From Planctomycetota bacterium (GTDB lineage Bacteria; Planctomycetota; UBA1135; UBA2386): a DNA stretch of 64,000 nt. The DNA lies in assembly GCA_965223545.1 (NCBI GenBank), contig OZ245006.1:4224001-4288000 (forward strand), read 5' to 3'. The first letter of the stretch is position 1; every line of letters starts with the position of its first letter. Shown here piece by piece: positions 43,683-54,876 of the stretch. Made by a program: the position numbers and the translations under genes. Below the pieces are notes generated by a model that worked only from the letters and a program-made list of their open reading frames with translations, was not told the DNA's origin and ran no database searches.

Positions 43683-45317
43683 ATGCTGACTTCCGCCCAC
43701 ACGCAGTGGCACGGCGGCCGCCGAGAGTGCGATCTGGCGATTGTCGGTGCCGGCCCCGCCGGTCTGACCCTGGCCAGGGAGCTGCGGTCGGCGGGCCTCG
43801 ACATCGTCGTGCTCGAGGCGGGCGGCCTCGAGGCGCGCCATCCGCGAGAGGCGGGGCGCCAACCGGCTCCGACCGGCACGTACGACGTCGATCATGCGCG
43901 CGCCCGCGGATTCGGTGGCACGTCCAACACCTTCGTGCCGACGGGTTGGCGCGCCCGCCCGCTCGATCCGAGTGACTTCGAGGTGACCGACGGCGACCCT
44001 TGGACGGGCTGGCCGCTGTCCTATGCGGACTTGCTTCCGTTCTACCGGCGGGCGCAGGAGGTCTGCGGTCTGGGAACCTTCGAGTACCGGGGTGAGCCTT
44101 GGGCGGCCGCCGCTGGTCGGCCGTCCCTGTGGGTCGAGGACGACGAGCTACAGACCAGCGTGTTCCAGCTGGGACCGCCCAAGCACTTTCGGCGCATGGC
44201 CGACGATGTCGCGAACTGGGGCTCGGTCGACGTCGTGCTCGGAGCTCGCGTGGTCGAGATCCGGTTGGCGCCGGACGGTACGGTGGAGGCGCTGCGCGTT
44301 CGCGTCCGCGGTGGAGCAGAGACCGAGCTGCACGCGCGGGCTTACGTGTTGGCGTGCGGTGGGATCGACAACGCGAGGCTGCTGTTGGCCTCGGGAGACG
44401 GTGGCGTCGGCAACCACCATGATCTGGTTGGCCGGACCTTCATGGAGCACCTGCACGCCGATACCGGCGTCTTTCGGCCCGCGGACCCCGCGGTCCTTCG
44501 CGACATGTGCTACTACCTGCCGCAGGGCGCCCCCGGGGCTGGGGGATTCCAGGGCGCGCTGAGCTTTCGCGACGACGTCCGGCGGGAAGCGGGGTTGCAC
44601 AACTGCATCTTCTGGCTCTACCCGGTGCCGGAGTTCTGGGCGACGGAGGTCGGTCGGTCGGTGGGAGCGCTGCGCAACGCGCTGCGCGAGCGGCATTGGC
44701 CGGAAGCCGGTGGCACGCATCTGCGCCGGTGTCTGCGCAACGTGCCGGCGTGCGCGTCGACGGTGGCGAGAAGGGTGGCACGCCGGCCGCGCCCGCCGGC
44801 CGCCGCGCGACTCGCGATCGAGGCCGAGCAACGGCCGGCCGTCGAGTCACGCGTCGTGTTGACGGCGAAGTGCGATTCTTTCGGTGTGCCGGTGCCCGCC
44901 CTCGATTGGCGAGTGACCGCGGCGGACTTGACGTCGCTGCGAGCGACCCAGGAGCGGCTCGATGCCCTGTTGCGCCGGCAAGGCCTCGGCCGGATCGAGT
45001 GCATGTTCGGTGACGAGTACCCGAGGGCACACCTGGGGGGTGGCCACCACCACATGGGAACGACGCGCATGAGTGCCGACGCGCGCTACGGGGTAGTCGA
45101 CGGCGACTGTCGCGTGCACGGGGTCGGCAATCTGTTCGTCGCGGGGAGCTCGGTGTTCCCGACCTCGGGCGCCGCCAATCCGACCCTGACGATCGTCGCG
45201 CTCGCGCTGCGCCTGGCAGACCGGTTGCGTGTGGATCTCGACGGTCATCGAGGAGGCGAGGTGGTCGAGGGCCGCGCCGCCGGTGCAACGACCCACCGAG
45301 CGCGGGTCAGCCCTTGA
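43683..45317 (+). CDS. GMC-family oxidoreductase
   Basis: GAGPAG, GGTS, GGIDNARLLL, GRTFMEH, HHMGTTRM, ANPTLT. Confidence 0.93.
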   Translation: MLTSAHTQWHGGRRECDLAIVGAGPAGLTLARELRSAGLDIVVLEAGGLEARHPREAGRQPAPTGTYDVDHARARGFGGTSNTFVPTGWRARPLDPSDFEVTDGDPWTGWPLSYADLLPFYRRAQEVCGLGTFEYRGEPWAAAAGRPSLWVEDDELQTSVFQLGPPKHFRRMADDVANWGSVDVVLGARVVEIRLAPDGTVEALRVRVRGGAETELHARAYVLACGGIDNARLLLASGDGGVGNHHDLVGRTFMEHLHADTGVFRPADPAVLRDMCYYLPQGAPGAGGFQGALSFRDDVRREAGLHNCIFWLYPVPEFWATEVGRSVGALRNALRERHWPEAGGTHLRRCLRNVPACASTVARRVARRPRPPAAARLAIEAEQRPAVESRVVLTAKCDSFGVPVPALDWRVTAADLTSLRATQERLDALLRRQGLGRIECMFGDEYPRAHLGGGHHHMGTTRMSADARYGVVDGDCRVHGVGNLFVAGSSVFPTSGAANPTLTIVALALRLADRLRVDLDGHRGGEVVEGRAAGATTHRARVSP

Positions 45318-46335
45318 TCAGCGGGAGCAGCAGCTCGGCCACTTCGGCACTGAGCTCGGGGTTCGGATGGTTGTCGAGCGGGCCGACGACCATGGTGGCA
45401 GGATCACGGCCGCGCAAGTGGCGGGCGAGGTCGATCACGGTCACTCCCAAGCCTTCGAGATGCCGGACAACCCGGTCCACATAGGGCAAGCTGCGATCGA
45501 TCTCGCGCAGCTGGGGAAACACCGTTGCCAACACGCGCGCCCCACGCGACCGCGCCGTCGTCACCAGGGCCGTCAACTCGTCGCGGTGTGTTGCCCAGAC
45601 ATCGTCACGCAGCCAGACTCGTTCGAAGAACTCCCACGCCTGACGATCGATCTCGCCTCCCTTGGCGAAGCGAAACACCTGCCAATACACGAAGTCGGCG
45701 AGGTGTGAGCGACGCAACAAGGCCTGCAGCCAGGGCGGGGGTAGATCGAAGCGCGGAGCTTCGCCGAGCCCGTGCGCGCGGACCGCATTCTCGATGTCGT
45801 TGAAGTAGTACGACAAGACCACCACTTCCGGGTCGGCGGGGTGGTTGGCGATCGCGTCGCGCTGATCCACCGTGTGCCATCCGTTGCGCGCCAGGACGAC
45901 CACCGACCAGTCGGGTCCGAGTGCCTGTCCGAGTCGGTTGCTGGCGCGATCCGCGATGTCGCGAATCCCGTGGCCGGCGACCAGAGAATCGCCGACGTGG
46001 AACACGACCCGCTTGGCCGCGAGCTGCGCGGGGTCGTGCTCGAGGTCGCGGATGCCCAGCGAATTGATGGGTCGCCAGTAGCGGGCGAACCACCGCTTGC
46101 TGGCCAGCGTGTAGCCGAAGCTATCCGAGCGATCGAGCAAGCCGTAAACGGCGAGCTCCAGCGTCGCCGTCGTGAGGATCAGGGCACTCGACGCGATGCC
46201 GATCTGCGCCAGGCGCCGGCGCGTGCCGGATGCGGGCCAATACCGGCGTCCGAGCCAGAATGCGGCTCCGGTCGCCGCCAAGACCATGACGATGAGCAGG
46301 AGAACACGGGTGGGGTGAGCGCCGAGACACAGCAT
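45307..46335 (-). CDS. Membrane-anchored SGNH/GDSL hydrolase or acyltransferase
   Basis: INSLGIRD, GDS, YYFND, DNHPN. Confidence 0.88.
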   Translation of the reverse strand: MLCLGAHPTRVLLLIVMVLAATGAAFWLGRRYWPASGTRRRLAQIGIASSALILTTATLELAVYGLLDRSDSFGYTLASKRWFARYWRPINSLGIRDLEHDPAQLAAKRVVFHVGDSLVAGHGIRDIADRASNRLGQALGPDWSVVVLARNGWHTVDQRDAIANHPADPEVVVLSYYFNDIENAVRAHGLGEAPRFDLPPPWLQALLRRSHLADFVYWQVFRFAKGGEIDRQAWEFFERVWLRDDVWATHRDELTALVTTARSRGARVLATVFPQLREIDRSLPYVDRVVRHLEGLGVTVIDLARHLRGRDPATMVVGPLDNHPNPELSAEVAELLLPLIKG

Positions 46336-46350
46336 CCGCGGCTGCCAAGC

Positions 46351-48162
46351 CTACCGGGGGACGAGAGCGGAGACCCATTCGCGCCAAGATCCGCGCAGGG
46401 CTCCCAGCAGCCGCGAAGTGCGCACGCTGCGGCCGCCGGTGCGCTCGTTGATCAGTTCGCCGAGTCGCTCCGCCAATCGGGCGTAGACCCAGCGCTGGTA
46501 GTGCCGGATGTTGTCGACGACCGCCGCGGTCGAGGTGACGAGCGGTCGGACATCGCAGATCACCGTGCTGGGCATGCCGTCGACGGCTTCTCCGAGTGCG
46601 CGGTTGAGCTCCGCATGGTGGGTGCCGCGTCCTCTCTCCACCGGGTGCGGCAGATCGAGCTCCGCGCCGTTGACCAGCACCAGGAGTTGATCGTCGCGCA
46701 GGTGGTGGCGAAGCCAGCGGACGTTGTTGGCAAGCCGAGCCCCGTCGGTCTTGCCCACGAAAGTGAACTCGGCCGCGAACCAGTCGAGGAACCCCTCGGC
46801 GTAGGGCTTGGCAGACTCGACGTGGTTTCGGTGGCGTTGGTCGGTGACGTCGATGAAGTAGTCGCCGAAGGGCACGACCCAGTCACTGTCGCGATAGCGG
46901 TAGAGCCCCTGGTCGTAGTCCATCAAGACGCTGTAGACCACGACGTCGATGTCGGCGTCGAAGGCCTGGGTCCGGTAGGCCGCCGCATCCAGGAACGGCA
47001 AACGGTCCAGGGCATCGGCAAAGCGCTCGGCGATGCCGTGGTCGTGACGGCGCAGGATCTCGAGGTGATCGGTCCTCACCGAATGCCCGGCGTCACCCGG
47101 GTAGTTGAACTCGGTGCGGATCCGTTCGCTGGCGCGGAAGAAGTGCACGACTTGATCGAGGTCGCAGCCTCCCTTCAGCAGGATGTTCGCGGACGCATCA
47201 TCTCCGCTCGCCGGGGCGTCATCGCCGATGGCGCTCTCCCGGATCCAGTCGACCGCGCCGCCGGAGCTCAGGTCCGTGGCGACCTCGCCGACGACGTCGA
47301 GCGCGGGGCGGTCGAGACGTTGGTACAGCCAACGCTCGATGCCCATGTTCAAAACCCGGCAAGAGAACAAGAAGTGCTCCAGCCGATCGTCGCGGATGGC
47401 GTAGAAGCCACAGATCCCGTAGTCGCCGTAGCGGTCGATGGCCCGGATGAAGCCCGCGTCGACGTTGGCCGCCGCCAGCAGTGCATCGAGCGCTGGGCCG
47501 TCGATGCGTTCTTTGGTGTAGTTCAGCTGATTCGTGCGCTCGATCAGCTCCAGCACGCGGTCGCGATGGCGCGCCACGTCGTGGCCGACCTCGACGCAGA
47601 TCTCGGACTCGCGCAAGAACGCGTCGTGGTCGATGTTCAAGGCGGCGCGGGCCTTGGCCTTCGCGGCCAGCACTTCGTAGTGCGCCAAGCGTCGGAGCTC
47701 GGGGTCGGCGCGACCGCGCAGCGCCCGGTGGTCGGCGATGGCCTCGATCGCCTCGGCTGGAGCGACCTGCAGGCCGGGGCAGAAGTGCTCCGCTTCACGC
47801 AGGTTGCTCAACCTGTCATCGATGAACAGCACGTTCTCCGCCCGCAGCTGCATCTGGTCGATGAGCGCGCGCAGCATCGGCCCCTTGGGTTGCCACGCGA
47901 TCTGCGGCATGACGAAGTAGCGCCACAGCCCGCGCTCCTGCAGGACGCGCTGGACCGACTCGAAGTCGTTCTTCGAGCAGATGGACGACACGATGCCGCG
48001 CTCCGCCAGGGCGATCACCAGGTCGTGGTGCGCGGGAACGTAGGCGATGCCTTCTTCGCTGAGCGTGCCGCGCCAGAAGGTCTCGTCGAGATCCCACACC
48101 ACCAGCTTGACCGTTCCGCGCAGGGATAGAGTCTCGGTGGAGGCCATCGTTGCCGGTGTCAT
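46351..48162 (-). CDS. FkbH-like HAD-IIIC phosphatase/acyltransferase domain protein
   Basis: KLVVWDLDETFW, SICSKN, LFIDD, RTNQLN, DRYGDYG, FSCRVL. Confidence 0.9.
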   Translation of the reverse strand: MTPATMASTETLSLRGTVKLVVWDLDETFWRGTLSEEGIAYVPAHHDLVIALAERGIVSSICSKNDFESVQRVLQERGLWRYFVMPQIAWQPKGPMLRALIDQMQLRAENVLFIDDRLSNLREAEHFCPGLQVAPAEAIEAIADHRALRGRADPELRRLAHYEVLAAKAKARAALNIDHDAFLRESEICVEVGHDVARHRDRVLELIERTNQLNYTKERIDGPALDALLAAANVDAGFIRAIDRYGDYGICGFYAIRDDRLEHFLFSCRVLNMGIERWLYQRLDRPALDVVGEVATDLSSGGAVDWIRESAIGDDAPASGDDASANILLKGGCDLDQVVHFFRASERIRTEFNYPGDAGHSVRTDHLEILRRHDHGIAERFADALDRLPFLDAAAYRTQAFDADIDVVVYSVLMDYDQGLYRYRDSDWVVPFGDYFIDVTDQRHRNHVESAKPYAEGFLDWFAAEFTFVGKTDGARLANNVRWLRHHLRDDQLLVLVNGAELDLPHPVERGRGTHHAELNRALGEAVDGMPSTVICDVRPLVTSTAAVVDNIRHYQRWVYARLAERLGELINERTGGRSVRTSRLLGALRGSWREWVSALVPR

Positions 48163-48227
48163 CGGCCAAACGGGGTCCGTCGCAGTAGCCTTCGGGGGGC
48201 CCGCTACGGCGGGAGCCAGCGACCGCG

Positions 48228-49298
48228 TCAGCGCTCGGCGCGAGGCGCGCTGGACGCGCTGGCCGGCACCCGCAGATTGCTCCAACCCTCACTCGGTCTC
48301 CACGAGTAGCGTCCGTCGCCGAGAATGAGGTCGCCGCCGTCACGACCGGTGAACGGATGCCGCGCGAACACGCGCCAGGCGTGGTGTTCGGCCGTTCCGC
48401 GGGCGGCCTCGATGCCCGGGTCGTCCATGTTGCGCGGCAGTCGATAGATCTCCTCGACGGCCCCGGTCCAGGCGTCGGCATCGACGTAGTGGAGATTGGT
48501 TTCTGTCTGCAGAAAGACCCGAAACCGCCAGGGCACGCCGGGGCGCGCCGCCGCGCTGCGACGGTCGACGGCCTCGCCGGCGGTGAGTGCTGCTTCGGCA
48601 TCGCGCACCAGCTGATGAGAGCGGTGCTGGAACCCGGCGAGAACCGCCAGATAGGCCGCCGCCACGACGACACCCGCGACGCACCACAGCCGCCGCCGCC
48701 GCTGGTCCGACCGCGTGAATCGCGCGGCGCACACGCCGATCGCCGCAGCGCTGAACAGCGCGGCCACCGGCCAGCCGACGCGGTGCGAGGACCACAGGGC
48801 CGACGCCGCCACCGCGTAGAACACCAACCAGGGCCAGCCGCGGCCTCGGCCCGGCGAGCCGAGACAGGCCGCGGCGCCGAGGGTGATCCACAGCCACGGG
48901 TCGACGATGTAGACCAAGTCGCCGTAGTACCAGGTGCCATCGAACGGCAGCCACGGGCGCACGCCGTAGTTGTTGAGTGCGTCCATCCCGAGGTGCAGCA
49001 GCAAACCTGCCCACGAGACCGCGACCAGCACCGGCAAGCTGCTGCCGAAGCGGCGGCGGGTGCACCACCAGACGAGCACGCCGAGCAGCACGCCCTCGAT
49101 GGCGATGCCGGCCAACGCGTGGGTGACGCCGCGGTGGTGGCACAGATACCACGGCTGTCCGCCCCAGGTGTAGCCGACGATGTCGATATCGGGCAGGTTG
49201 GACGCCGCGACCGCGGCGATGGTGGCCGGTGGGCCGTAGCGATCCAGCCCGAGTCGCGCCAGCGCGAGCCCCGCCAACGTGTGTGCGGCGTTTTCCAC
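48228..49298 (-). CDS. YdjM-like membrane metal-dependent hydrolase
   Basis: HTLAG, NLPDID, HHRGVTH, HLGMD..NNYGVRPW, IVDP. Confidence 0.9.
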   Translation of the reverse strand: MENAAHTLAGLALARLGLDRYGPPATIAAVAASNLPDIDIVGYTWGGQPWYLCHHRGVTHALAGIAIEGVLLGVLVWWCTRRRFGSSLPVLVAVSWAGLLLHLGMDALNNYGVRPWLPFDGTWYYGDLVYIVDPWLWITLGAAACLGSPGRGRGWPWLVFYAVAASALWSSHRVGWPVAALFSAAAIGVCAARFTRSDQRRRRLWCVAGVVVAAAYLAVLAGFQHRSHQLVRDAEAALTAGEAVDRRSAAARPGVPWRFRVFLQTETNLHYVDADAWTGAVEEIYRLPRNMDDPGIEAARGTAEHHAWRVFARHPFTGRDGGDLILGDGRYSWRPSEGWSNLRVPASASSAPRAER

Positions 49299-49324
49299 GT
49301 CTTACCGGGTGAGCAGCGGGCGGA

Positions 49325-50635
49325 TCAGTCGATCTCGTACGGCAGTGCGCCTGCCTTCTGCAGGTACGGGCACTTGCGACAGTAGTCGGTGAGCTCACCG
49401 GTGTAGAGCCCAACCCGCAGGCGCTGGTACTCGGGCCCGTTCCAGATGTCTTCGAACTCCTGCTCGAACGCGTTGCCGAGGATCGGGCGGTCGGGCGCGC
49501 AGCAGGGAAACACCTCGCCGTTGAGGCCGACGAAGACCCGGCGCCACGGCATGTCGCAGTAGTACTTGCCGCCGTAGTCCGCGGGCTGCGCCATCGGCAA
49601 CGTCGTCTCGGACGGCTCGTGGGATGCCGCCGCGCCGCACTCCTTTGGTTCGGGGGTCTGCGCGGCGGACGCGACGGTGGGAACCGGGCTGCCGGCGGCT
49701 GGCGCGGACGGAGCCGCCGCCAGCTGCTCGGGTGCTTGCGCTGTCGGCGTTTGCTCGGCAGTGCTCTCTTGGTGCGCGTCCGGTGGCGGTCCGTCGCTCG
49801 TGCTCTCGGCGGCCGCGGCGGCGAGCCGCGCGGCCGCATCCGGTGGCAATGGCTCCGGAAACTCGATCTCGATGCCGTGCGAGGCGGCAATGGCGCGGGC
49901 CTCATCGAGGGCGCGGTTGGTCACCTCCGGACAGTGCATCGGCGATGACGCGCGGATCCGCTCGCTGGTGATGATGACGTAACAGGCGGAGACGAAGTCG
50001 ACGTCGTTGGCGGCGGCGATCTCCATGATCCGCGGCAACTCGTGGACGTTCTCCCGCATCAGGACGACGTTGAAGCAGAACTTGATGTCGTGCCGGAGGC
50101 CGAGGTGTCGGCGCGCTCGAGCGAACGCGCGCACGTTGGTCATTACGGTGTCGAAGTCGCCGCCGGTGCGCACGTGCTCGAAGGTCGCCTTACTGGCCCC
50201 GTCGAACGACACGGTCAGGCGCTGCAAGTGCGGCATCATGTGCTCCATGCGATCGCCGCACAGCAGCATACCGTTGGTGAACATCTCCAGCTTGCAGCCG
50301 AAGCGTGCGACCGTGTCGATGAACTCCTCGAAGTAGGGCAGCACGAACGGTTCGCCGCTCAGCGTCGGGTTGATCGTGCGCATGTGCGGGAACGCGCGCT
50401 CGGCAACCATGCGGAACGTCTCCAACGGCATCGTGAACCGCGGCCGGCCCGCGGCGCGCAGGTCGTCGCGCAGCATCTCGTAGCCGCACATGAAGCAGTG
50501 CAGATTGCAGGCGCCGGTGAACTCGAAGACGCCGTGCATCGGCCAGCCGTCCACAGTGCCGCTGCCGTGCCGCTCTGCTGCCAGGACGCGTTGGTCATTG
50601 ACGCGTTTGGCGTCTTCGAATGGCGGCGCGCTCAT
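49325..50635 (-). CDS. Radical SAM enzyme with SPASM/twitch domain
   Basis: CNLHCFMC, SGEP, TNG, SFDG; C-terminal CDMPW...GEVFPCC...CRKC after a Pro/Ala-rich linker. Confidence 0.93.
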   Translation of the reverse strand: MSAPPFEDAKRVNDQRVLAAERHGSGTVDGWPMHGVFEFTGACNLHCFMCGYEMLRDDLRAAGRPRFTMPLETFRMVAERAFPHMRTINPTLSGEPFVLPYFEEFIDTVARFGCKLEMFTNGMLLCGDRMEHMMPHLQRLTVSFDGASKATFEHVRTGGDFDTVMTNVRAFARARRHLGLRHDIKFCFNVVLMRENVHELPRIMEIAAANDVDFVSACYVIITSERIRASSPMHCPEVTNRALDEARAIAASHGIEIEFPEPLPPDAAARLAAAAAESTSDGPPPDAHQESTAEQTPTAQAPEQLAAAPSAPAAGSPVPTVASAAQTPEPKECGAAASHEPSETTLPMAQPADYGGKYYCDMPWRRVFVGLNGEVFPCCAPDRPILGNAFEQEFEDIWNGPEYQRLRVGLYTGELTDYCRKCPYLQKAGALPYEID

Positions 50636-50696: not shown

Positions 50697-51968
50697 TCAG
50701 GGCGCCCCCGCGCCGGTGCGCGAGGCCCACGCCGCGAAGTGATGCGCCTCGGCACGGGGCTCGTGGGCGAGCATCGGCGTGTCGCGGTGGTAGTCGCGGA
50801 AAGCCCGGCTGAAGCCCTTCGGGTCGCGGTCCCACCAGCGTCGGGCGAGCATCGATCCGTGCTGCAGTCGCTCGAAGCGGAGCTTGGCGACGAGGAGGGT
50901 GGCGATCCGGAGGCCGTCCGAGTGCACGCCGGCCATCGGCGGAGGCGGCGGCGGGGCGGAGTCGGGGTCCCGCAAGGCGCCCGCCAGCCAGTGCGCGGCC
51001 TCACCGAGGGAGTCCGTGTCGACGTCGGTGCGCCACTCGCCGTCGACCAGGTGGGGCGGCGTGGTCTCGAGCGCAGCGGGTATCTCGCGGCCGCAGCGAT
51101 CCGCGATCGCCCGCACGCGGTCCAGCTCGCGGAGCAGCGGGTCGACGTCGCCTGCGGCCACCGTGCCTTCCATGCGTTCGAGGGTGATCCCGCGCAGCCG
51201 GCGGCAACGGGGTGCCCAAGTCTCGCACAGGGCCCAGACCGGTTCGGGGACCGCGGCGTCGTGGCTGTCGAGGCGCAGGGTGCGGCCGTTCGGCAACCAC
51301 GCCGGGTCGCTGCGGCGGCCACCCGAGACGTGGATCTCGATCACGGAGTCGAGATCGACGCGCTGCAGGTAGTCCTCCGCCTCGATGCCGAGGTTGATCG
51401 CCATGGTGTAGACGTTGTGCAGATCCAGGACCAAGTGCGTCCGGGGCGCGCTCAACACCGAGGCGAGAAACGCCGGCTCATGCAGCCAATCACCGGGGCT
51501 GCAGTAGTGCACGGTGGTCTCCACGCCGACGTCGGCCACGATGCGCTGCAAGGCCGCCAAGTTGTCGCGCAAGGCCCGCGCCCATGCGTCGCACATCGGC
51601 AGTGCCATCGGCAACGCGACGTTCTCGCCGGCGACGACGGAGGCGCCGAGATGGTCGGTGTACCAGGCGTAGCGGAGCATGCGATGGTCCTCCGCGATGC
51701 GCTCCAGCCACTGCTCACGCCGGACGCGATCGGCCGAATCGATCGACCCGAGGCTGAGCCCGACGCCGTGTGCGACGATGGTCTTGCCGCGCTCTGCGTG
51801 ACGCTGCACTTGGCGGTGGAAGCCGTTGGGACGCAGCCCGGCGCCGTCTGCGACCCAGAGGGTCTCCGGCGCGACTTCGAGATAGTCGGCGCGTTCCAGC
51901 GCGGGCGCCAGCAGCTGCAGGTACTGCGCGTCGGGCTGGAAGGTGATGCCGGTGGCGGCGCCGCTCAC
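50697..51968 (-). CDS. DUF692 / MNIO (MbnB/TglH/ChrH superfamily) enzyme with C-terminal helical extension
   Basis: EVAPE, HGVGLSLGS, YTDHL, LDLHNVY, EIHVSGG, LDSHDAAVPEPVW, TLER. GTG overlaps the upstream stop. Confidence 0.9.
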   Translation of the reverse strand: MSGAATGITFQPDAQYLQLLAPALERADYLEVAPETLWVADGAGLRPNGFHRQVQRHAERGKTIVAHGVGLSLGSIDSADRVRREQWLERIAEDHRMLRYAWYTDHLGASVVAGENVALPMALPMCDAWARALRDNLAALQRIVADVGVETTVHYCSPGDWLHEPAFLASVLSAPRTHLVLDLHNVYTMAINLGIEAEDYLQRVDLDSVIEIHVSGGRRSDPAWLPNGRTLRLDSHDAAVPEPVWALCETWAPRCRRLRGITLERMEGTVAAGDVDPLLRELDRVRAIADRCGREIPAALETTPPHLVDGEWRTDVDTDSLGEAAHWLAGALRDPDSAPPPPPPMAGVHSDGLRIATLLVAKLRFERLQHGSMLARRWWDRDPKGFSRAFRDYHRDTPMLAHEPRAEAHHFAAWASRTGAGAP

Positions 51969-52867
51969 TCGCTGTAGAAGAAGAGGAAGCGCTGGGCGAG
52001 TTCGGGGACGTGCCCCATGCCGCAGCCGACGGCGACGTTGTCGCGCTCGCCCTCGATGCGCATGCCGCAACCGCCGCTGTGCGCCCACTTGGCGCCGGGC
52101 AGGTGCGGCTGGACGATCTCCTGCCGGCTGGCGTCCGCCAAAGCGGCCAGCAGGCGCTCGCCGTCGCCCGCGCGGCGTGGTGCGGCGGCGGCGATGCGCA
52201 CTACGGCCGCGGCCCGCACCAGCAGGCCTGGATCGGCGGTGCCCGAGTTCATCGCCCGATCGAGTGCTTCGCGCTCGTCCTCGGCCAGCGTGGCCCGCTG
52301 TCGGTCGGCGCGCTCCGCCAGCCAGCCGAGGTTCGGCGCGACGGCTCGCCGGACGGCGGCGCTGAGCCTGGCCACGCAATCCCGGTAGTAGCGCTCCTCC
52401 GCGCCGTCTCGGGGGCTCCGCATCGGTGCGCGGGGCGGGGCTTCCGCCAGCTCAGGCGCGATTGGGACGACCTCGTCTCGAGCCGGGTCCACGAGCAGCA
52501 TCAGGGGGTCGCCATCGATCTTGACGGCGAGGTGGCTGCGCAGCTCGCCCGCGGTCGCGCAGGCGGGAACGCACAGGGCCAGGTCGCGCAGGGCTTCGTC
52601 ATCGGCGTGGTTGAGCCACGCGCCGAACAGCTCTCCCCGTTGCCAGCGGGCGGATTGGTCCTCGGGAAACAGCAGCACGAGCAAGGGTTTGCCGTGAGCC
52701 CGGGCGCGGCGCGTCGCCGCGACGAGGGCGGCGGTGCGCGCCGATCCGTCCGTGCCATCGGCCGGATCCTGGGCGCCCAGCGCTGCCGCCAACCAACTCG
52801 GCAGCGCGATCGCGCCTGCGGTAGCGGTGGATCGGACAAGGAACTGGCGGCGGTTCACGTCGGTCAT
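51965..52867 (-). CDS. Tat-signal secreted protein with C-terminal GCGM...GCGMGH motifs
   Basis: MTDVNRRQFL...ALGA twin-arginine leader, GKPLLVL thioredoxin-like start, C-terminus HSGGCGMRIEGERDNVAVGCGMGHVPELAQRFLFFYSE. Confidence 0.85.
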   Translation of the reverse strand: MTDVNRRQFLVRSTATAGAIALPSWLAAALGAQDPADGTDGSARTAALVAATRRARAHGKPLLVLLFPEDQSARWQRGELFGAWLNHADDEALRDLALCVPACATAGELRSHLAVKIDGDPLMLLVDPARDEVVPIAPELAEAPPRAPMRSPRDGAEERYYRDCVARLSAAVRRAVAPNLGWLAERADRQRATLAEDEREALDRAMNSGTADPGLLVRAAAVVRIAAAAPRRAGDGERLLAALADASRQEIVQPHLPGAKWAHSGGCGMRIEGERDNVAVGCGMGHVPELAQRFLFFYSE

Positions 52868-53166: not shown

Positions 53167-54876
53167 ATGCGTCTACATGGGTTGGCCCCGTTTCTGATTC
53201 TGTTCGCCGGCTGCAGCAGCGACGGCGGTTCCGACTTGATGACCCCGACGATCGCGTCGGCGTCCTTCGTCGGTGCCGGAGCGTCTCCCGCGGCCGGGGA
53301 TGTCATCCACCTACTGATGTCGCGCGACGTCGAGTTGACGGCACAGACGCTCGATGACGACGACCTGCAGCTCTCCGACGGAAGCGTCGGGACGATCGTC
53401 GGCACCGCGCTGCAGCTCGATTCGCGGACGGTCCAAGTGCGTCTTGGCGCTGGCACGACGTTCACCCCGGGTACGACGACGGTGGTGTTCACCGGGCGCA
53501 ACGACGCCGTCGTCAGTCGCAGTGGGCTTCCGGCTCAGGGCGGCACCCCCCGCGTTGTCGAGGTCGGTGACGGTGATCGTCCCACGATCCTGGGAGTGAC
53601 ACTCAACGGCGTCTCGGACACGTTCAATGGCCGTGGTGCCGCCGGCGGCGTTCTGATGGTGCCGCGCAACGGTTTCTCGGTCGACATTCAGCACACCGAC
53701 GGGACGTCGGGTGTCGATCGAGCGCGGACGCAGATCACCACCAACACCGTCGTCGAGACCCCGCTGGGGGCGCTGCCCGCGGGCACCGACATCACGGGTT
53801 GGACCACGATGAGCACGGCGGGCAACGTCACCTCGTTCCGGATCGACCCGGAGATCGTGTTCCCCGACGGCTTCGCCTCCATCACCGGCGTGGTCGTCGA
53901 TCAGACGGGGATGAGCTCCGAGCCCCAGTCGTTCGTCTTCAAGGTCACCGACGCGACGTCCGCCCTGCGGCCGACCGAGCGGACGCAGGTGTGGTATCTC
54001 GACACGACCCGCGACCTGGAGTCCTACGACGTCGACGGCAACGGCGTCAACGTGATCGGAGGCGCCAACGGCCGTTCGGACCTGGAGGATCTCTTCGAGG
54101 TCGTCGGCCTGTATGGGGGCGGAGGTCTCAACCGGATGGTGATGTCGGGCGTGGAGAACGCGATCCTCGAACGCCTGCAGCAGTACTGCTTCGGCGTCGA
54201 CGCGGTGTTCACGTTCGATCGCCCCGGACCGCCGTTCCCGAGCGAGGAGAGCGTCGGCTACCCGACGTTCCCGTACTCGCAGATCTGCATCGCGGGGGCG
54301 GCCGACTACAAGGGCACCAGCAGCCTTCTCGGCCTGGCGATCTTCGACCCGAACAACACGACGCAGGACAACGACTGTCTGGCGGATGTTCTCGGCGAGC
54401 GGCTCGGCGTGTTCGTGCACACCCTGGTGCATGGCTACATGACCGCCGGTTCGACGACGACCTACCGGCTGACCTTCGACCCGCTCACCCCGTGGTTTGG
54501 CGGAACGCCGATCGGCAACGATTCGCTCGACATCCAGCGGATGACAGGACAGCTGAACGACGCCCGCACGGTGGTGATCGAGAACGCGATCGACCGCATG
54601 GGCTACTTCATCGCGTCCGTGGTCGCTCACGAGTGCGGCCACTCGATGGGACTGGTTCAGGATGGCGCGATGCCGGTCGGCTTGTTCGGCGGTGACGCCA
54701 CCAATTTCCCCGGCTCGACTTCGGGCCACATCGACACGAGCTTCCAGTACACGGGATTCGCGATGAACCTGATGAGTCCGTTCATCGACTTCGACGGTGC
54801 CATCGACCCGGGGTCGAGCTTCAACCACCTCAATCTCACGTACCTGCGCGAGCAGGTCCTGTACGGCAACAAGTGA
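53167..54876 (+). CDS. Lipoprotein with Ig-like region and zincin-type metallopeptidase motif
   Basis: Lipobox LFAGC; VAHECGHSMGL with downstream NLMSP (Met-turn-like). Confidence 0.8.
   Translation: MRLHGLAPFLILFAGCSSDGGSDLMTPTIASASFVGAGASPAAGDVIHLLMSRDVELTAQTLDDDDLQLSDGSVGTIVGTALQLDSRTVQVRLGAGTTFTPGTTTVVFTGRNDAVVSRSGLPAQGGTPRVVEVGDGDRPTILGVTLNGVSDTFNGRGAAGGVLMVPRNGFSVDIQHTDGTSGVDRARTQITTNTVVETPLGALPAGTDITGWTTMSTAGNVTSFRIDPEIVFPDGFASITGVVVDQTGMSSEPQSFVFKVTDATSALRPTERTQVWYLDTTRDLESYDVDGNGVNVIGGANGRSDLEDLFEVVGLYGGGGLNRMVMSGVENAILERLQQYCFGVDAVFTFDRPGPPFPSEESVGYPTFPYSQICIAGAADYKGTSSLLGLAIFDPNNTTQDNDCLADVLGERLGVFVHTLVHGYMTAGSTTTYRLTFDPLTPWFGGTPIGNDSLDIQRMTGQLNDARTVVIENAIDRMGYFIASVVAHECGHSMGLVQDGAMPVGLFGGDATNFPGSTSGHIDTSFQYTGFAMNLMSPFIDFDGAIDPGSSFNHLNLTYLREQVLYGNK

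Follow-up and report, generated by a model that had tools for sequence, protein, structure and literature searches.

The motif CPACGMG is a proven substrate motif of the MNIO enzyme ChrH (PMC10214503). The ChrH-type reaction removes 4 Da and yields a hydantoin and a macrocycle, with a helical domain that is either fused to the enzyme or separate, and MNIO modification has been described both for an embedded motif (ArlA) and for a 34-kDa secreted protein (MelA1) (PMC13056109). The same source states that the function of the ChrH-type product is unknown; in its available text, the sole reference to Planctomycetota is to a small network cluster. In the DybH-type reaction, oxidation begins at the second Cys and ring closure comes last, a step that even glutathione can carry out; DybH oxidizes the motif even without the first Cys, and glutathione then adds instead (10.64898/2026.10.27.762324).

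We analyzed a stretch of 64,000 nucleotides of planctomycetotal DNA, referred to as the window, in which an MNIO (DUF692) gene directly follows a gene for a 300-aa protein (Table 1). The coupling of an MNIO with a Cys-motif protein at this locus is real. As originally predicted, a GTGA overlap at 51968-51965 couples the two genes, and the upstream protein (52867-51965, minus strand, N-terminus MTDVNRRQFL) carries the sequence GGCGM-x11-GCGMGH, which holds Cys267 and Cys282. The fused helical tail of ~100 aa foreseen on the DUF692 protein is likewise found, modeled as five helices. In one study, possibly the source of the assembly, contigs of two samples span the stretch with no differences and no indels, and given this match nothing obvious marks the gene fusion as an assembly error; together with the fused state in 20 of 53 loci, the match ruled out a frameshift artifact as the origin of the fusion. 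A promoter scan found no promoter. As a whole, the interpretation put forward in the original prediction is partly supported.

TABLE 1 Coordinates of the features of the gene pair within the window
Feature	Position	Strand	Basis or remark
Putative MNIO substrate protein, 300 aa	51965..52867	-	Belongs to an unnamed family; twin-arginine signal followed by thioredoxin-like and helical domains and a split Cys motif
Twin-arginine signal-like N-terminus	52775..52867	-	Residues 1 to ~31, with RRQFL; cleavage site guessed
Thioredoxin-like domain	52337..52750	-	Residues 40-177, without CxxC; Cys103 95%, Pro121 87%
Cys267, GCG motif	52067..52069	-	100% in 162 homologues; ring-closing thiol proposed from the DybH mechanism
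CGMG (Cys282-Gly285)	52013..52024	-	Second half of ChrA-type CPACGMG; proposed oxidation site
Conserved post-motif segment (HVPELAQRFLFF)	51977..52012	-	Model strand 293-296 and covariation; predicted to dock back on thioredoxin-like domain
GTGA stop-start overlap	51965..51968	-	Translational coupling; GTG start over upstream TGA
MNIO (DUF692) catalytic domain	51102..51950	-	Residues 7-289 of 423-aa ORF 51968-50697; Pfam, NCBIfam, alignment, tree
Fused helical MNIO partner domain	50697..51008	-	Residues 321-423; fused/separate counts and fold matches

Across 162 homologues of the 300-aa protein, Cys267, Gly283, Trp261 and Arg293 are conserved at 100% and Cys282 at 99%, so the Cys motif is more than chance. 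Met284 (94%) and Gly285 (88%) are also kept, and Met269 is found in only 7%. The first motif is thus conserved as GCG only, the two motifs are not true twins, and the family pattern is GCG-x-CGMG; of the proposed "twin GCGM" arrangement the second half stands, as a conserved CGMG, and the first does not beyond its GCG, the likeness of the two in the present copy being partly chance. The two cysteines have a spacer of 14 residues here and of 13 to 19 in 133 of 137 members, with CGMG present in 114 of the 137 two-Cys members and ACGMG or GCGMG in 99 of the 137. The CPxCGxG pattern of ChrH/DybH precursors is therefore absent from the present protein with its spacer of 14, and the xCGMG half is present. 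The motif was also thought to end the protein, which it does not: 14 residues follow the His of GCGMGH and contain a conserved VPxxxxRFLxF segment, and at least 14 residues follow the motif in every family member examined.

The model of the 300-aa protein (pLDDT 91) has a thioredoxin-like domain, then a helical domain, short strands around both cysteines and a last strand at residues 293-296. The thioredoxin-like domain best matched 3fk8_A (Z 6.1, rmsd 2.9, 104 aligned), and almost all rows of the fold search were thioredoxin folds, with consistent but modest scores (Z 5-6.1 over 102-122 residues). The Atlas lead for a thioredoxin fold was 0.82, all Atlas leads being below 0.9, and a Foldseek search of the 300-aa protein against the PDB gave no match at an E value of 0.001. 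A CxxC after the first strand is absent, the sequence there being LFPEDQSARW, without a conserved Cys. Covariation in 262 sequences paired A83 with A291 (rank 3), R74 with Y298 (rank 10) and M123 with F297 (rank 24), with R162-L290 also among the top 24 pairs, and these pairs, taken with the model strand, place the post-motif segment on the thioredoxin-like domain. The pair G273-G281 (rank 51) weakly supports a hairpin between Cys267 and Cys282, and the two cysteines may thus lie close together.

The twin-Arg leader seen in the original prediction is a family trait, with RR shared by 134 of 138 members and the fuller RRxFL by 81. PF10518 matched 25 of the 138 at an E value of 0.05 or less, TIGR01409 reached 14.4 bits on the present copy, below its cut-off of 16.7, and TatC is encoded in the genome; by signal and Tat system, the 300-aa protein is a predicted Tat substrate. 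Other than Tat signal models, no Pfam or NCBIfam family was consistent over the 138 members, and none of them matched DUF2282, Buf2 or EGKCG with a Sec signal, the N-terminus being of the twin-arginine type. A full-library search placed the family at 723 clusters at 50% identity. Of 61 related genomes, 16 carry it, and named records with the family come from Planctomycetota and Myxococcota, among them complete genomes of Sorangium.

To follow the pair across genomes, we kept those candidate loci that matched the family, dropping 32 of 137 as chance; the scan favors intact motifs. Among the loci listed, 101 are distinct: the MNIO gene lies directly downstream in 79, the sequence ends too soon in 18 and 4 are without an MNIO, which amounts to 79 of 83 scorable loci and agrees with the proposal of a conserved pair. 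The gap between the two genes is at most 70 bases in 73 of these 79. Of the 65 long loci among those listed, 39 hold a single substrate copy and the others between two and nine; frameshifts account for one count of three. In the reciprocal direction, the MNIO clade was found in 16 of 60 relatives chosen by kinship, with the scaffold gene directly upstream in 15 of the 16 and the 16th cut by a contig end; kin genomes are not independent, and these figures are therefore counts and not a test. The reciprocal count rests on genome searches because a metagenome search with the MNIO domain gave no confirmed relative. Frameshifts break MNIO or substrate genes in two loci (L039 and L099), reflecting decay or assembly error.

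Neighbor clustering in the 53 loci listed (ORFs of at least 30 aa) revealed no conserved short Cys-rich precursor, as the original prediction had noted for the window itself. A small precursor hidden in gaps of 290-316 bases was considered and rejected, the five loci concerned having no shared ORF. These results bear on whether the 300-aa protein is a substrate at all, or an exported thioredoxin-fold dithiol protein or receptor that acts alongside whatever the MNIO makes from some other peptide not seen here. The thioredoxin-like fold would fit that role, and so would the orphan copies described below and an Rdx-family CxxU gene inserted in one cassette; the motif, however, corresponds to one that an MNIO is proven to modify, coupling between the genes is tight, with expansion in tandem, and no small precursor for such a peptide product is conserved among ORFs of at least 30 aa in the 53 loci listed, and we regard a nonsubstrate role as quite unlikely. 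Judging from its sequence and its linkage, the 300-aa protein is probably the substrate of the MNIO.

Several neighboring genes deserve mention in their own right. The inserted gene (L041:746-1003, plus strand) lies between the substrate gene and the MNIO gene, belongs to the Rdx/SelW family and has an in-frame TGA at CxxU; it probably encodes a selenoprotein and gives a faint hint of a redox role. At L235:394-1446, a gene for a SAM-dependent methyltransferase, possibly relevant to S-methylation, directly precedes the MNIO gene, the substrate copies being on another contig. Beyond the cassette, a single gene family recurs in more than 3 of the 53 loci listed. Its members encode an uncharacterized exported protein of ~300 aa, often lipoprotein-like, and immediately precede the substrate gene in 13 of the 53 (L054:3349-4368 and 12 other loci, mostly labeled Myxococcota), and a Pfam scan of five of these gave no match. 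In the window, radical SAM/SPASM, YdjM-like, FkbH-like and SGNH/GDSL genes form a run at 45307-50635 (minus strand) that is not conserved with the cassette; we do not count the radical SAM/SPASM gene just downstream (50635-49325) as part of the system, since it has no relative in 19 regions and forms no recurring cluster in the 53 loci listed. On the other side, a divergent 569-aa lipoprotein-like ORF (53167-54876, plus strand) contains HECGHSMGLVQ, which we take to be a zincin-like motif, and gives a weak match to Reprolysin_3 (E 0.089). The same genome holds a second MNIO cluster outside the window (C1:5502400-5504430, minus strand), with its own short Cys-rich precursor bearing HACKG-type repeats and a full-length partner-like gene downstream.

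The substrate gene is amplified in some loci. In L106 with L167, L078 and L212, five to nine or more divergent copies precede a single MNIO gene, with Cys lost or moved in some copies. The split-motif array of L078, which stands before a split-clade MNIO, also holds a copy with a compact CPxCGM motif, as does the array of L214. Compact CPxCGM proteins matched the profile of the present scaffold at an E value of 2.8e-15, or 6.4e-08 once signal and motif were removed; after trimming, the twin-arginine group accounts for the 6.4e-08 and the Sec-signal group is weaker, at 1.8e-04. By these profile matches, the CPxCGM proteins are homologous to the present scaffold beyond the motif. That compact and split motifs interchange on one scaffold suggests a common role for the upstream Cys in the two forms.

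In the sister MNIO clades of related genomes, the upstream protein ends in CPxCGM in six of eight loci. The sister family with a compact CPxCGM on the same scaffold (L237, L239-L241, L244, L245, L048, L049 and L215) has Sec-type N-termini in five loci and twin-arginine N-termini in four; itself apparently undescribed, it is the closest bridge to ChrH. Two more distant MNIOs (L246 and L247) fall within the ChrH/DybH clade and have Pro-rich precursors ending in DPCPxCGRG, and two CPxC-clade MNIOs (L238 and L243) are without a scaffold gene directly upstream. Motif-less copies are kept inside the MNIO arrays of L076, L125, L106 and L212, and copies with the Cys motif stand without an adjacent MNIO in L060, L100, L048, L049 and L215. 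Two genomes (G035 and G331) have scaffold homologues without CGMG and no MNIO match, an anecdotal observation given that they are about 90% complete.

PF05114 matched residues 7-289 of the 423-aa ORF with an E value of 1.1e-36 (126.9 bits against a gathering threshold of 25). The DUF692 metal-binding motifs are retained, as anticipated: eight ligand-type residues (H67, H106, E150, D182, H213, D234, H236 and E264) show no variation across 52 clade sequences and line up with the corresponding residues of ChrH-type enzymes, including a ChrH orthologue, when compared with the iron-ligand list given for DybH (10.64898/2026.10.27.762324). Residue 151 is Thr in the present enzyme and Asn in 86% of the clade. 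Identity to ChrH/DybH-type enzymes is 23-28%, and NF050165 scored 101 bits, under its cut-off of 600, below which DybH-type enzymes also fall (311-382 bits). In a tree of 41 rows, with 23 left out, limited outgroups and warnings for base composition and long branches, the present clade and ChrH/DybH were joined against 11 other MNIOs with support of 100/99. Within that joint group the split-motif clade (99/98) is distinct from the ChrH/DybH clade (100/100), which sits on a long stem and does not include the present enzyme, and the internal order is not settled. By sequence, the present MNIO groups with the ChrH/DybH subfamily as kin outside its clade, and because of this position, the low identity and the 101 of 600 bits, its chemistry may differ.

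The ChrH, BufB and HvfB models of NCBIfam came out in a near tie on the present MNIO (99.5-101 bits), which would also suit a different outcome on the same substrate, in which each Cys-Gly separately becomes a group of the kind present in bufferins and oxazolins, a thiooxazole or oxazolone-thioamide, to form a two-armed copper site on the exported protein. Gly follows both conserved cysteines (93% after the first and 100% after the second in the 162 homologues), and Cys-Gly is the modification site in EGKCG oxazolins (PMC12452194). Against such a copper site, the tree groups the present enzyme with ChrH/DybH, and in four myxobacterial genomes the cassette MNIOs scored 85-118 bits on the ChrH model and the other MNIOs 58 or less. 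Chemistry of the ChrH type would require Met284, which is 94% conserved, and neighbor clustering in the 53 loci listed found no recurring DoxX, sigma or copper gene. We hold this copper site to be unlikely, and the copper framing of the original prediction gives way to an enzyme that groups with the hydantoin- and macrocycle-forming ChrH/DybH, apart from the 11 remaining MNIOs of the tree.

The tail of the enzyme, modeled with a pLDDT of 90 over about 100 aa, was compared with 48,161 chains, among which MbnC ranked 1 (Z 6.6, rmsd 3.4, 85 aligned), NGO1945/DUF2063 ranked 2 (Z 6.3, 2.5, 67) and TglI ranked 5 (Z 5.0, 3.8, 102), all modest scores. An equivalent is encoded by a separate downstream gene in 33 of the 53 loci listed and is fused to the MNIO in 20. 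On these fold matches, the tail is an MNIO partner domain without an RRE, in line with the proposal that the partner had been fused to the enzyme. An hhalign comparison with the ChrH bundle gave an E value of 0.24, within the range of shuffles and with only four ChrH-type tails, and the partner HMM misses the ChrH tails. The locus is thus most likely a three-part cassette of substrate gene(s), MNIO and partner domain, part of a wider ChrH-like group.

With moderate confidence, we propose that the MNIO and its fused partner domain oxidize Cys282 of xCGMG in the cytoplasm by chemistry of the ChrH/DybH type. Cys282 would pass through a thioaldehyde to a hydantoin formed with the following Gly-Met, with a net loss of 4 H, and Cys267, held near by the hairpin, would supply the ring-closing thiol to give a DTT-stable cross-link; the Tat system would then export the folded, modified 300-aa protein. 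The cross-linked ring would span ~16 residues instead of 4, and since known substrates have a far shorter distance between their cysteines, this may be a new, long-range cross-link. Linkage in 79 of 83 loci among those listed, arrays of up to nine copies, the CGMG itself, the interchange of compact and split motifs and kinship with ChrH/DybH speak for this proposal; the motif-less copies in arrays, the orphan copies, Thr151 and the position of the enzyme outside the ChrH/DybH clade speak against it. Access to the active site is unexplained, because model and covariation clamp the motif into the fold at both ends.

Cys282 could also be oxidized in the ChrH manner with the ring left unclosed by Cys267, the electrophile being trapped by Cys103, another thiol or a protein and Cys267 serving a separate redox or metal role. 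DybH does oxidize its motif without the first Cys, with addition of glutathione (10.64898/2026.10.27.762324), and Cys103 is 95% conserved and shows a weak covariation with A262 (rank 59), but the exchange of compact CPxCGM and split forms on one scaffold argues for closure by Cys267, and we find the unclosed form quite unlikely. Returning to the closed cross-link, we would guess that the product equips a redox or ligand-binding scaffold, now devoid of CxxC, with a thiol site derived from the protein itself. A doubtful extension is that the long-range Cys267-Cys282 hydantoin/thioaminal cross-link, with one free thiol, constitutes a new protein-derived cofactor replacing the lost CxxC, the arrays of up to nine copies then forming a repertoire.

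A ChrH-type motif inside a folded domain offers a handle on product function that short peptides do not give, and the split motif lets a mechanism with late, loosely controlled ring closure be tested on a natural variant. If the 16-residue ring forms, the enzyme would be a candidate tool for stapling large protein loops. Cultured Sorangium strains carry the cassette, and the native product and knockouts are therefore within reach.

Protein-scale MNIO substrates and fused partners are already known and are not new here; novelty is lower than the original prediction implied because a 34-kDa substrate and a helical partner, fused or separate, have been published (PMC13056109). No account of an MNIO substrate that is thioredoxin-like, has a twin-arginine signal and bears a split motif turned up in the literature searched, including the available parts of PMC12452194, PMC13056109 and PMC12636315; that search covered few subscription papers, and the supplements of PMC13056109 or PMC12452194 could list the clade. 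The words "Tat" and "thioredoxin" are absent from the available text of PMC13056109. In the literature searched we saw no CxxC-free thioredoxin-like scaffold that combines a twin-arginine signal with a split motif whose first Cys is distant.

Bufferins, oxazolins and TIGR04222 proteins, the last being proposed protein-sized MNIO substrates, resemble the present pair as MNIO cassettes with exported Cys-containing substrates, whereas the present pair differs in enzyme group, motif and partner and its substrate matches no family model. The partners of PME-types 1 and 2 (DUF2063/NGO1945, TglI and MbnC; PMC12452194) are, like the present tail, helical, placed right after the MNIO and the top fold matches; the tail differs from them in having no RRE domain and no Pfam DUF2063 match and in being fused in 20 of the 53 loci listed. 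MelA1/MelH/MelHc (PMC13056109) share with the present pair a secreted substrate of more than 30 kDa and a small helical partner, separate or fused. MelA1, however, belongs to the TPR proteins, carries an SPI signal and has a terminal CPACGMG, whereas the present protein is thioredoxin-like, with a motif that is split, internal and apparently docked into the fold. With the ChrH/DybH systems (ChrA, DybA and ArlA; PMC10214503 and PMC13056109) the pair shares the CGMG target, the upstream precursor gene, the iron-ligand positions, a helical extra domain and a joint tree clade, and an embedded motif is known in ArlA. It departs from them in the first Cys, which lies 13-19 residues upstream of the second in the present family and 2 in ChrH/DybH precursors, in the substrate, a folded 300-aa protein with a twin-arginine signal as opposed to a Sec or lipoprotein signal, and in the tail, which is longer than the ChrH bundle and without detectable sequence similarity to it. 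The split-motif substrate is thus a variant of known protein-scale MNIO modification with a fused partner, to which it adds a specific and testable twist.
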